Below are positions 9,172 through 62,567 of a stretch of DNA of 64,000 nucleotides, piece by piece (the first letter of the stretch is position 1; each line of letters begins with the position of its first letter). The stretch comes from Eledone cirrhosa. Lineage: Eukaryota. Below the pieces are notes generated by a model. That model had not been told where the DNA came from. It did no database searches and saw only the letters and a list, made by a program, of their open reading frames with translations. The translations under genes were made by a program, and so were the position numbers. The stretch covers positions 37,138,001-37,202,000 of the forward strand of contig OZ024747.1 of assembly GCA_964016885.1 (NCBI GenBank), in the 5' to 3' direction.

Positions 9172-9287
9172 AAGTTATTCCGGGTTGAATTGGAGGTAAC
9201 CACAGTAAGTAAAGTACTCAATACAAAGCAGAGTATAAAAGTTTTAATATAGAAGAGCTTCTACAGGATTAGAGCTTCTACAGGACA
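9172..9287 (-). mobile_element. Short (TA)n-flanked element end, related to 17417-17582
   Basis: CCGGGTTGAATTGGAGGTAACCACAGTAAGTAAAGTACTC and GCTTCTACAGGA resemble 17419-17515; carries the ACTC..GAGTACT hairpin on the minus strand. Confidence 0.6.
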
Positions 9288-9381
9288 TATATATATATAT
9301 ATATATATATATATATATATTAGAAAGTGAGGTTCTTTTTTACAAAATGAAGAAAAACCACAGACCCTCCATCTCAACTCA

Positions 9382-9419
9382 CCTTTTGAAAAGCAGAAGA
9401 ACTGCGAAACCGGTAAAGG
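9382..9419 (+). ncRNA. Minimal type I hammerhead ribozyme, U3-A8 variant
   Basis: CCTT-TTGAAAA-GCAG(AAGAA)CTGC-GAAA-CCGG-TA-AAGG: stem I CCTT/AAGG, stem II GCAG/CTGC, palindromic ACCGGT stem III, GUA triplet. Confidence 0.75.
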
Positions 9420-10579
9420 AACCAAATAAATATATATATTTTTTAAAAAAATAAGACTTCAGTTGCATTTTCGATTTCATCTCTTTTTCTTTATATATAT
9501 ATATATATATATATATATATATATATATATATATATATATGTATGTATGTATATTTATGTATGTATACACCTCTATATATACCCATGTAATTAAACACGT
9601 TTGTATGTCTGATTATTTTTATTATATGTATTTGTATAAGGAGGGTGCATGGGAGAGGGAGATAGAATGAGGAAAAGGTTTAATTGAACATAGACGCCTA
9701 ATCTAAGGCAATCTTCTTGTTCATTGTTCGTAGTAATGTGTTGTTTTTAAAGACAATGGCTGATGTCGGGAATATGAGATGGAAAATTTGATTTATGTTT
9801 ATATTGATTATTACTTTTGTCTGTGGCTTCTTTCCTGTTTATCTTAGACCACACTTAACCAGAAAATAAGATTTTCCTTCGATGCAGACAGATTTGGATA
9901 GATGAGGCATTTATAACACAACAATGTACTTCCTTCTCTCTCTCTCATTCTCTTTCATCACTTCCTTTCTCCTCTTCTTTCACTACTCTCATTTCCTTTG
10001 TGAAGTTCAATTTCTTGAGGTCATTCTTCACAACTTTGTCCTTTGTTTTTCTACGTCTCTCTCTTCCACGGGTCCCAACCACATCAAACATTTCTTTATA
10101 GAGTTCTAACTCTCTTTATGCATCATGATTCAATTCTTCTTATACTCAGCTTCTCTTTATGTTATAACTTGTAACTCAATAAAATTAACTAGGCTTTCAT
10201 TAAGTTGTATAATAGTATTGACTCAACTTAATTGACTTTCTATATATAACCCACTTGCATAATTTGCTGTGTATATCTAATTATTTAATGTTAAATATAC
10301 GAACCTATACGAGTAATCAAGTGAGCCATAATGTGGTCGTCCGACATACTAGAGGAAACAACCAAATCTCTCACAAATCACACGTAACCATCGTAAGATG
10401 GAAAAGACATACTGAATATTACGTTATGTCTGAAGAGAAAGACGGCATAGTAATTAGATATTATTTATTGAACTACAACTACAACTGCAACAACCATCTT
10501 AAATATGAAGCTTGTGTGAAAAATCTATGTTACTAATATTTTCCAATTGTTTCTTAATATTATTTCTTTCATGATCACC

Positions 10580-10775
10580 AGAATTGATAGAGCTTCGGAT
10601 AAAATGCCATTGCACAATTTGTTCTGGCTCTTTACATTCGGAGTTCAAGTCTCGCCGAGGACACCTTTGCATGTCATCATTCGGGGGTCGATAAAATAAA
10701 ATACCAGTCATGTTCTAGGGTCAATTTAATCAACTTAGCACTTGCCCCAATTTTACTGGTCTTGTGCCTAAATTC
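10580..10775 (+). mobile_element. Degenerate tRNA-derived SINE
   Basis: GAGTTCAAGTCTCGCCGAGG...CATTCGGGGGTCGATAAAATAAAATACCAG...CTGGTCTTGTGCCTAAA matches the other SINE copies. Confidence 0.7.
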
Positions 10776-12464
10776 AGCATTTATTTCATGCATATCCCAT
10801 ATTCATAAAACGAATTATATGAAATAAATAGTATGTGATGTATAATTCTCTGAGTAATTACATGATGGCTATAACCTGACATTAAATCAAGTTCACAGAT
10901 TCAGAGTACCTGATCGTATTACTACTGCTATTTTTCTTTTGTATACCTAGGACTAAATTTCCATACATGTCCTTATTTTCTTAAATAGGCAATGTGTGAG
11001 TTGGTGCAACGTTTGACTTCTATTTCTAAGCACATGGAGCAGCTACATTAGTGGCTCTTTCGCTGGCTAAGATGTAAGGTAAGATGTGTGAGTGTTTAGA
11101 AAGAGAAAGTTAGACAGACAGACATACCGAATAATGTAGTCTTAGATACACTACACAGAATAATGTAGTTTTAGTTACACTATTCTAGAAAGAATTAAGG
11201 AATGTTCATGACTGGGACACCATTAATCATAGGCTTGCTCTATCATAGTGACCTGGGGTTAAACAGCAGGAACAGAAATAGATTCAAAAGTATTTTAGAA
11301 CTGATAACATTGAGCATATTTCACATCTATCAAGTTTTACCCTTGCTTTCCTATAATCATCGACAGTCATTCTGACTTCAATCATCTTTTGTTGTATCTT
11401 TTAGTTTTGTTTTATTTCTAAAATTATTCAATGTCTATCGCATCTCAAAAAATATTTTCTAATTATAGTTTATGTATTTCATTTGATTTTTCCCATCTCT
11501 CTCTCTCTCTCTCTCTCTCTCTCTCTCTCTCTCTCTCTCTCTCTCTCTCTCTCTCTCTCTCTCTCTCACTCTCTCCATATATATATATATATATAATTCA
11601 TTGTCTCTCTTTCTCTCTGCCTGTTTCCTTATGAATTCTCAAATGGTTCGACCAAATCAAATCAAATTTTACAATAGTATTAGACCCCGGGATTAACAAC
11701 ATGTTTTTATTTTCATTTGGATTAAAACAATATAACATTTTATCTAAAATAATCTTTATATAGTCAACTATACTACGACGGCAACGACGACGTCACATTT
11801 TGTATATGAGTGTGTATGTGTTTGTGAGTATGTGTATGAGTACGCGTTCGTTACGTACGTTAGGCCTTAGCAAGTTACATACGAATACATCTTCACGTAA
11901 ATATTCTATCAGATACTTAGAGAATTAAACATACACACACATCTTCACATGTGATGACTGACAAGTATATGTGTGTTACTTTATGTGAGAGTGTATGTGT
12001 GTGTGGATGTATGGGAGAGTGTATATGTGTGTGTGAGTATACATACATTTCTGTGACGACTGATATAACAAAGGCTGGGGGGTATACTGTGTGTGTTTTT
12101 TATAAGCGTATGTTTCTGTGAGTGTATGTGTGTCTTCGTAGGTGAAACTGTGTGTTTGTATGAATGTATGACGGTGTGTGTGTGCTTTTATAAATTTGTG
12201 TGTGTGTATCTGTGTCTGTTCGTGCGTGAAACTCTGTGTGTGTTTGTATGAATGTATTATGTGTGTGTTTGTATGAATGTATGTCTGTATGTGTTTTTTT
12301 ATAAGTGTATGTTTGTGTGAGTGTATGTCTGTTCGTTAAATTAGTTAAATCATTTGCTTATATTTGGTTACACTGCATACAAAAATAATAATTAATATAT
12401 ATTTCTTTTGGATGTTGATACTTATTTGTTTACAATATTGAAATAAAAAATGTCTTTATTCTAA

Positions 12465-60989: not shown

Positions 60990-61800
60990 GTGATCTTATA
61001 TGCGAGCAGCCTAGATTAAAGAAAGTTTTTATCAAATCTTTACGAAATTTGTGAAGATCATGACCATTGGTGGTATGAGAGACTTCTAGTGCGTCATCTC
61101 GATATAAACCTATAGTGTGATTGGGGAATTTCTCTTTAAGTGTGTGGAGGAGGAATAACCCAACTAAATCGCACACATCGCCACTATCAAAAGAACCCAT
61201 TTAGACATCAAAAGGATTTTCTAGGTTTGATTTTTTTACCCAGGTTTCGTCTTTGGCAAAAATTAATGTTTTTTATGGCATGCAAAATGACATCTTTCTC
61301 TAGTTCTGATATATCAGTAAATTGTCTAGCAAAATCTAATGATTTGGCTAATAAGGAGCGAGTAATAGAAGGGTAGAAATCGATATATCTAATTAGGTAA
61401 ATCTAGACTTATTTTTCTCTTATATATTATCAAACCAAGATATAACTGAGGAAGCATTTAACCATTGAAATAATTCTGTTTTACTTCTTGTTTGTTTAAT
61501 GATATTTCTTAAAATTTTTTACTAGCAAGACCAATTTCTGTTTTAGCAGGGTTAATAAGTCTACAACTAGGTCGGTTATTGACATCTATATTATGGCCCT
61601 TAATTGTAATATAAGCTTTACGTCTTGCTTTACTCGTTGCTTAAATGTGAACATTTCTGGATAACAAATAATTTTCCTGAATTCTTTCATGATATTTTGG
61701 TCCGACCATTTCTAATATTAAATAATTAAACAACAACGGTTTTTGTCTCATCAAACATAGAATTTGTAATGATGTCTTCTTTACAAGAGAATTTCCGCAC
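60990..61800 (-). pseudogene. Decayed Penelope-like reverse transcriptase core
   Basis: KAYITIK, CRLINPAKTEIG, DFYPSIT, MGSFDSGDVCDLVGLFLL, GLYRDD. Confidence 0.85.
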
Positions 61801-62020
61801 AACTCTATGACAAATCCTACTCTGTGTGTGTGTGAATGATTTTTTATGAGGCGGGTCTGATTTTAAATTTTTTAATAATTAATTTGAACACGTAACATAC
61901 GAAATATTGGAAATTCCAATAATCAAAGCTTTGGGGTTGTAATGAAGAAATATATAATAGTACATTGTATATGGTTTGAGACAAACCACGACAGAAACAC
62001 AAACCTTCCATCTCAATTTC

Positions 62021-62058
62021 ACTTTTGAAAATTATAAGAACTGTGAAACTGGTAAAGT
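62021..62058 (+). ncRNA. Degenerate U3-A8 hammerhead, same family as 9382-9419
   Basis: ACTT-TTGAAAA-TTATAAGAACTGT-GAAA-CTGG-TA-AAGT; flanks are homologous to 9355-9490. Confidence 0.55.
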
Positions 62059-62350
62059 AAATAAATAAATATTCTTAAAATACTCCAGTGGCATTTTCAA
62101 TTTCTTTTCCATATTTATATATATATGTGTGTGTGTGTGTGTGTGTGTGTGTGTGTGTGTGCGCGTGTGTGTGTGTGTGTGTGTGTGTGTGTGTGTGTGT
62201 GTGTGTGTGTGTGTGTGTGTGTGTGTGTGTGTGTGTGTGTGTGTGTGTGTGTGTGTGTGTGTGTGTGTGTGTGTGTGTGTGTGTGTGTGTGTGTGCGCGT
62301 GTGTGTGCGTGTGTATGTGTGTGCGTGTATGTGGGTATATATATATATGT

Positions 62351-62567
62351 CCAGGTCTGTTGTTTTAACCTGATTAGTTCTTTCGTTGTTTTGGTATTGT
62401 ATGGTTGGGTTTTGCCTACCACAATTTTCAATGTGTCAAGCTATTTAAACGTAATGTTATTACTCTAAGGACCTACCCTTATTGAGTGCTTTGATACGCA
62501 TTCCTTATAGTAGGTCAACTCTGCTTCGCCACAGCCAAAGCTTCGATTTTACTAAGCTTCCAATTGA
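62351..62567 (+). mobile_element. (TA)n-flanked element 3' end, same family as 46973-47180
   Basis: Sequence homology to 46973-47180; hairpin at 62462-62490. Confidence 0.75.

Follow-up and report, generated by a model that had tools for sequence, protein, structure and literature searches.

Penelope-like elements (PLEs) of the Hydra clade contain a short open reading frame (ORF) with RWK, DKT and CxCx5C motifs as well as GIY-YIG at the C terminus, carry a canonical hammerhead ribozyme and insert into (TA)n targets (PMC8557442). Minimal type-I hammerheads of the PLE kind are also documented in PMC4209133. The one-sided tails and head-to-head inserts of PLEs have been a puzzle for two decades, and the first in vitro system gave two starts of reverse transcription and no signal to set them. 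In the Poseidon element of Anolis (PAc), both target strands are nicked and extended, the reverse transcriptase (RT) begins copying at two internal sites, one on either side of the tail, and RNA located 3' of both start sites is required (PMC11167929). Here, we analyse a stretch of 64,000 nucleotides from Eledone cirrhosa (contig OZ024747.1, positions 37,138,001 to 37,202,000 of the forward strand), hereafter the window, which contains short hairpins that recur near the ends of its PLE-like inserts. The comparison with near-complete leaders of elements from other animals places two copies of this hairpin, H1 and H2, in the 5' leader of Hydra-clade PLEs, and we propose that they probably set the two starts of reverse transcription.

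A preliminary description of the window listed nine hairpins of the form ACTC-N11-23-GAGT-RCT between positions 9213 and 62490, and all nine read exactly so, with correct coordinates and strands. They were also said to lie near a microsatellite junction, and for all nine a (TA)n or (CT)n run follows at a distance of 15-77 nt, with (TA)n or (CT)n/(TA)n at the end of the insert in 9/9 cases. The nine distinct matches in the window compare with means of 1.07-1.20 in dinucleotide shuffles, none of which reached nine in 200 trials at each of three block sizes, and the motif has the highest count among 360 composition-matched stem-plus-trailer patterns (mean 0.94). Of the 17 occurrences of GAGTRCT in the window, the nine with an upstream ACTC lie 15-77 nt from a microsatellite, while the other eight lie at 154-6801 nt. 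The sites represent seven families, with 17992/59903 and 47051/62462 as sibling pairs. The families had been called unrelated, which agrees with the lack of convincing similarity between them outside the hairpin, but the nine sites reduce to seven families that are likely members of one clade, Hydra. Neither a lack of enrichment at element ends nor a single recent family, the latter of which would have made the sharing trivial, agrees with the shuffles, the seven families and the loci outside the window.

The closing stem and the RCT trailer are exact as first described, but the motif is larger and its lower stem also varies. The full motif consists of RYTC, a covarying upper stem, a bulge of 1-2 nt on the 3' side and GARY-RCT, such that a lower stem of 4 bp is topped by an upper stem, 2-6 bp long and different from family to family, with TT as the bulge in 17/21 hairpins. 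Loops extending the stem had been noted before, and in 8/9 sites the loop is a second covarying stem followed by the 3' bulge. Further members in the window, at 58616, at 58800 and within a 485-bp tandem repeat, have the compensated lower stems GTTC/GAAC and GCTC/GAGC, and across the hairpins the lower stem swaps A-U for G-C (7/14) as well as C-G for U-A. The bulged-stem rule holds for 8/9 sites and for 10/114 metagenome matches of the same primary pattern, which were reused as the control set, and the rule, which was drawn from these sites, matches 19 times in the window compared to 5.8 +/- 2.3 times in the shuffles. Pairs were counted on a structural parse of 21 family-level hairpins because MAFFT misaligned the variable loops. 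For upper-stem pairs 1-3, 56/63 cells are paired, compared to a shuffled mean of 31.8 and a maximum of 45 (0/20000), and 13-30 in slid controls; among the 11 hairpins from outside the window, 30/33 are paired versus 18.5. In 35 loci, a pattern without any demand on the upper stem had 31 distinct hits, all of which were kept, with 75/93 cells paired versus 47.5. The relatedness of the families inflates both of these shuffle tests.

The link to the Hydra clade comes from proteins, published consensus sequences and ORF ends. Starting from a broken RT in the window, we arrived at proteins that carry RWK, DKT and CxCx5C, as is typical of Hydra; the consensus of their alignment (A1) fits the published Hydra features, and the predicted fold of the proteins is closest to TERT. 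A search with Hydra proteins identified nine loci, at 37-45% identity, on contigs of animal origin that had been binned into four bacterial assemblies, where more copies are present. These bacterial genome assemblies (L129-L137, G001-G004) contain animal-host contigs full of PLEs. The motif is located downstream of the hammerhead also in Hydra-clade PLEs from these four assemblies, and one assembly of 12 Mb contains 18 distinct sites with motif and TA compared to one raw match for the reversed pattern. Among the six published Hydra consensi, inspected by eye in the supplement of PMC8557442, Amil-2 and Ajap-2 have the full motif after the hammerhead, and Hydra-1_Ajap has two hairpin copies at its 5' start, before the ATG. 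One of the outside families matches Amil-2 by eye, and the two are thus not independent. Ten 9-mers gave ten hits in the same supplement, in which line breaks may conceal others, four being the Hydra hairpins and six lacking a paired hairpin in the printed context.

We also examined 32 ORF 3' ends, five of which were set aside since they belong to other PLE clades; none of these five has the hairpin. Among the 27 Hydra ends, 11 have H1 located 40-61 nt past the hammerhead, one has an H1 cut at the bulge, nine end in a microsatellite 30-57 nt past the hammerhead, and two are cut by contig ends. The motif was not found at the hammerhead ends of other clades in the outside loci and the window, which are weak negatives since most of them are short ends. 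No Hydra relatives were found in viral contigs, where a scan for the pattern gave background only (13 loci). In a metagenome scan (115 loci and 118 matches, from 49/64 parts), one of the 118 matches has a hammerhead-like core and none has a fold-back of this kind. The elements in the window lack an ORF, and their membership in the Hydra clade is therefore deduced from motif, hammerhead and TA target. A hammerhead core is present in four of the seven window families, and a fifth has the 3' half through its sibling; where present, the hammerheads are of the minimal type-I PLE kind and lie upstream of the hairpin on the same strand. The window families are likely all to belong to, or derive from, the Hydra clade. 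The Neptune clade, which was the first guess for the hairpin elements, was dropped.

The position of the hairpin in elements with a near-complete leader differs from that first proposed. It had been described as 3'-terminal, but the 5' leader of the RNA contains two copies between hammerhead and ATG, of which this hairpin is the first, and it looks terminal because tailed copies end just before the second copy. The near-complete leaders, one per assembly (L130, L134, L137 and L148), contain both hairpins between the hammerhead and the ATG, 40-45 nt apart, with H1 located 40-100 nt after the hammerhead and H2 approximately 20-35 nt before the ATG. The leader of L196 is cut by an inversion and contains H2 only, and those of L129 and L131 are truncated.

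The ends of genomic copies are of two kinds, short ends without a tail and tailed ends. Overall, 26/27 short ends are located 3-7 nt before H1. Outside the window, all 18 fall 3-6 nt before H1, in seven families from one assembly and at an offset that is constant per family. Inside it, where the offsets come from copies within these 64 kb and several were read by eye, 8/9 fall 3-7 nt before H1. All nine testable tailed ends are located 1-8 nt before H2. Eight of them are from two outside families, with three copies ending 4 nt and five copies ending 5-8 nt before H2, and the ninth, near 58752 in the window, ends 1 nt before H2, or 6 nt if the TA microhomology is discounted. With short ends before H1 and tailed ends before H2, the tail corresponds to H1 plus the spacer. 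For this tabulation, we discarded 15 rows as chance matches of the seed that no microsatellite follows, went over five rows again by eye to read beyond a substitution, and read the short arms of 56563 and 17453 by eye. Five of the nine sites lie in fold-backs, where the hairpin had been placed just beyond the end of the shorter arm; this is the case for four of the five, with the short arm ending 3-7 nt 5' of ACTC (4 nt by script for 59903; 17992, 38639 and 56563 were read by eye), but not for 16729. Several 5' truncations or inversion joints are located at or in H1 (59212 in the window, and L136, L137, L135 and L196), as would be expected of a roadblock formed by a putative bound protein. Tail-only inserts that start within approximately 12 nt of H1 were found in TA runs (L130:837-920, L148, L136:1513, L185 and L207), and in the same places RCT is usually followed by YY, with RCTC repeated directly after the stem.

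The reading that we prefer, with a probability of roughly two in three on these sequence comparisons, is that H1 and H2 are predicted protein-binding sites, each of which would fix the start of reverse transcription 3-8 nt 5' of itself. The preliminary description had suggested a conserved PLE signal in cis for the start of reverse transcription. The covariation and the fixed offset of 3-7 nt support this suggestion well, but the families that carry the signal likely belong to, or derive from, Hydra, and other PLE clades seen here lack the motif. According to the proposed mechanism, the element protein would nick a (TA)n run, and the end at the nick would pair with a small AU-rich patch immediately 5' of a hairpin, from where copying would proceed in the direction that leaves the hairpin behind. 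Initiation at H1 would give a short end without a tail, while a start at H2 would copy back through H1 and give a tailed end. If both target strands were primed, one at H1 and the other at H2, a head-to-head fold-back with a one-sided tail would result. Non-coding derivatives, such as the 485-bp tandem and the 58752-59732 element, may have been moved in trans, since they retain the hairpins. Both the binding of a protein and an action at the RNA level are what we infer from the leaders and the ends, as is simultaneous priming. A more tentative proposal, which we consider possible but somewhat doubtful, is a twin initiation in which two protein units on the H1 and H2 of one RNA prime two cDNAs on two nicked strands. 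If so, the hairpin spacing would set both the tail length and the geometry of the fold-back, the aptamer pair would be specific to each clade, and a leader of approximately 100 nt would be enough to direct the insertion of any RNA.

Several observations weigh against the proposal that the hairpins set the starts. The hairpin is weak, being present in the minimum-energy fold of only 10/21 copies folded in their context, and the choice of the 21 family-level hairpins used for the pair counts was based on the lower stem, the length of each bulge being assigned by hand. There are two G.U pairs and two A.C pairs among them, and with equal counts the pairing does not identify the strand. The exceptional short end in the window, at 16729, is located 38 nt before the ACTC first noted in this fold-back, but 4 nt before another ACTC at 16796. 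The rule for H2 comes from three families, two in one assembly and one in the window. At most ends, 2-8 nt of TA-like sequence are common to the insert and its target, and the AU-rich patches at the ends thus blur the offsets by 2-8 nt through microhomology. With regard to the clade, no hairpin in the window is joined to a Hydra ORF, and the hammerhead is missing from two of the seven window families, 56563 and 47051/62462, and from the 58800 family. Of the 27 Hydra ORF ends, one has no hammerhead, and three with a hammerhead lack both H1 and a microsatellite. Finally, among the published consensi, Hydra-1_Crog (at both ends) and Hydra-1_Amil have only near matches by eye, and Hydra-1_Obim has at best a degenerate copy (PMC8557442 supplement).

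Alternatively, the motif may work in DNA, which we consider unlikely. The GIY-YIG endonuclease would then recognise a hairpin in the cDNA, or the degenerate palindrome AGYRCT, and cut a few bases away to resolve an insertion intermediate. Consistent with such a role, AGYRCT is identical on both strands, several junctions lie inside H1, and the wobble counts do not tell which strand folds. According to PMC11167929, recognition by the Drosophila Penelope endonuclease depended on the tail, and tails produced by endonuclease-mediated resolution have been suggested (PMC8557442). However, three variants in the window keep their offsets despite the absence of RCT, the covariation calls for folding of a single strand, and the mapping of starts in Poseidon puts both tail boundaries at RT starts on RNA (PMC11167929).

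Two other roles in RNA are both improbable. In the first, the hairpins would be processing or pausing sites, such that the RNA is cut 3-8 nt before each of them and the RT starts at ordinary 3' ends. This predicts genomic ends identical to those expected from H1 and H2 as binding sites, but in Poseidon the RT begins within uncut RNA and requires sequence that lies 3' of the start (PMC11167929). In the second, the hairpins would function in controlling the ribozyme or in translating the ORF, and the nearby ends would arise only from AU-rich patches that pair with the TA target. The positions of H1 after the hammerhead and of H2 before the ATG are compatible with such a function, as is the TA-like microhomology at most ends. 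Yet the leaders are AU-rich throughout, while the ends gather at an offset from each hairpin that is constant per family, and the non-coding tandem derivatives keep H1.

The similarity to transfer RNA is very improbable as an explanation. The GCTC..TAGAGCRCT form also matches strings in bacterial contigs, which we take to resemble tRNA D-arms, and the motif might by extension be a relic or mimic of a D-arm derived from a short interspersed nuclear element. However, ARAGORN found no tRNA in the window, where no scan for a B box was made, the loop of the hairpins is a covarying stem, the AG..GG D-loop is present in 0/21 hairpins, and the bulge is mostly TT. Chance, or one recent family, can practically be dismissed; in its favour, the core has only 11 bases and the 118 metagenome matches with motif and TA are background, but the shuffles and the outside loci already refute it. 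An analogy to the template boundary of telomerase was rejected; the template-boundary element of telomerase lies 5' of the template.

The hairpin-bearing elements in the window differ in what else they retain. The H1 hairpin at 9213-9234 (-), with ACTC/GAGT, a 3-bp upper stem including one G.U pair and a TT bulge, lies in a 115-nt piece between TA runs. Its decayed sibling at 17453-17475 (-) is part of a small fold-back with the 3' half of a hammerhead at 17515-17528, and the short arm ends approximately 7 nt 5' of the hairpin by eye. The irregular hairpin at 16729-16762 (-), with an A bulge and an interrupted upper stem, belongs with a minimal type-I hammerhead at 16863-16963 (-) and fold-back arms at 16801-16938 and 17115-17252. 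The H1 at 17992-18014 (+) follows just past the fold-back 17843-17987, which has a hammerhead core in its short arm (17880-17910, -), and its sibling at 59903-59925 (+) follows the fold-back 59770-59898 with a hammerhead at 59808-59837 (-). In this family, a second hairpin that matches the rule (GTTC/GAAC, T bulge) lies over the hammerhead cleavage site (59858-59875, 59793-59810 and 17866-17882). The fold-back 38253-38639 contains a hammerhead at 38536-38579 (+) and its mirror copy at 38313-38356 (-), and is followed by an H1 with a TC bulge at 38639-38662 (+). The H1 at 47051-47079 (-), with a 5-bp upper stem, has no hammerhead in the approximately 100 nt retained upstream; its sibling is the H1 at 62462-62490 (+). 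The H1 at 56563-56589 (+) lies past the fold-back 56431-56555, which keeps no hammerhead core, and the idea that it is the 3' end of a LINE (long interspersed nuclear element) at 52736-56412 was dropped, since a TA run and the fold-back lie between them. The H1 at 57955-57981 (+) is preceded by a hammerhead-like core with one core change and a long stem II (57815-57895, +).

The remaining members carry variant stems. A hammerhead at 58468-58539 (+), in the long arm of a fold-back, is followed at 58616-58639 (+) by a GTTC/GAAC hairpin with a 4-bp upper stem, a TT bulge and no RCT, and the short arm ends 4 nt 5' of it. The GCTC/GAGC hairpin at 58800-58825 (-) has a 5-bp upper stem and a TT bulge, with the short arm (the 59732 end) ending 6 nt 5' of it; no hammerhead was found in this family. 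A second tail copy of this family, at 59212-59291 (+), runs from the H1 bulge into H2 (59271-59291; GCTC..TA-GAGC with a 1-bp upper stem). The 8-nt inner sequence of this H2 is identical to that of H1 in a Hydra family of another animal (L205/L206), while the two are otherwise dissimilar by eye. The 485-bp tandem at 47720-48954 (-) contains 2.5 units that are 99% identical and resembles retrozymes of the kind without long terminal repeats (non-LTR retrozymes), in that it consists of tandem non-coding units with a 485-bp period and three type-I hammerheads, one per unit (48782-48852, 48297-48367 and 47812-47882). It was first scored as lacking the motif, but the inner units then revealed H1 in a GTTC/GAAC form with a 6-bp upper stem (48655-48685 and 48170-48200, both -), and the array ends in TA 4 nt before the position where a third H1 would begin. 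Weak H2-like strings are located approximately 100 nt after the start of each H1 (48564-48581 and 48079-48096).

The window as a whole is AT-rich (39.6% GC) and rich in microsatellites, with retroelement debris throughout, including pieces of LINEs, part of a Helitron helicase and numerous short inserts that are bounded by (TA)n runs and in several cases form head-to-head fold-backs. Two broken Hydra-clade RT remnants were identified with a hidden Markov model from alignment A1, one with RT thumb and endonuclease at 6300-7654 (+; best i-E 5.5e-27) and another at 61009-61637 (-; best i-E 1.6e-39), neither joined to any hairpin. A 48-bp satellite, with 86 copies at 1811-5930 and 18 copies at 8207-9058, is found in each of the two arms of a large inverted repeat (1780-6296 and 7942-9089) whose spacer is a broken Hydra-clade ORF. 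Two LINEs on the plus strand (34341-37470 and 52736-56412) contain RT, zinc knuckle and restriction-like endonuclease motifs and are presumably R4/Dong-like. A Pif1 helicase fragment at 38942-39844 (-) likely comes from a Helitron. PLE ends with a hammerhead but without the motif are located at 13284 (+), 21285 (+) and 47512 (+), the first with a classical tail of approximately 36 nt and the last with an AC-rich stem similar to the Poseidon type.

The motif is real and likely undescribed. None of the 150 Rfam 15 matches listed of 161 in the window reached the gathering score, and nearly all were microsatellite-driven miRNA models; five Hydra loci gave no matches. No description of the motif was found in the searched full-text literature, in the available parts of PMC8557442, PMC4209133, PMC3846280, PMC7229834 and others, a coverage that ends at subscription papers and Repbase. 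A motif of 20-30 nt that occurs twice, with each end at a constant distance from it, allows a direct mutational test, offers a way to place ORF-less fragments and retrozymes in the Hydra clade, and is a candidate RNA ligand of a telomerase-related RT.

The closest described elements are the Hydra-clade PLEs themselves, the consensi of which contain the hairpin, while the motif and the two-copy rule are undescribed in the available text; 'hairpin' and 'stem-loop' occur zero times in the main text (PMC8557442). The 485-bp tandem fits the class of non-LTR retrozymes, with a type-I hammerhead per unit (PMC7229834; bioRxiv 10.64898/2026.07.22.740005), and H1 may be a sequence mark of their likely helper clade; the available text of the retrozyme preprint (bioRxiv 10.64898/2026.07.22.740005) has zero hits for hairpin, stem-loop, tail and initiation signal. 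A further parallel is the 3'-tail stem-loop of stringent LINEs such as UnaL2, which also has a short bulged stem, is needed in cis and is common to non-autonomous partners (PMC1636434, PMC4176376). That stem-loop is single, located at the RNA's 3' end and copied into the insert (PMC1636434, PMC4176376), whereas the hairpins described here are two internal copies located 3' of the starts, and H2 is absent from copied 3' ends. In PAc, as here, two starts downstream of the hammerhead bound a one-sided tail, and the targets are AT-rich (PMC11167929). PAc differs in that no conserved motif has been defined in the available text, one start lies in a stem-loop of the ORF that is rich in AC, this motif is by eye absent from the printed segment, and the tails are 30-40 nt rather than approximately 45-115 nt (PMC11167929). 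The printed PAc RNA, with the order of letters taken from a PDF extraction, contains two GAAAG motifs, each after GCC and 34 nt apart, which equals the tail length (PMC11167929 supplement), and it is possible that this GAAAG pair is a clade-specific tandem signal.

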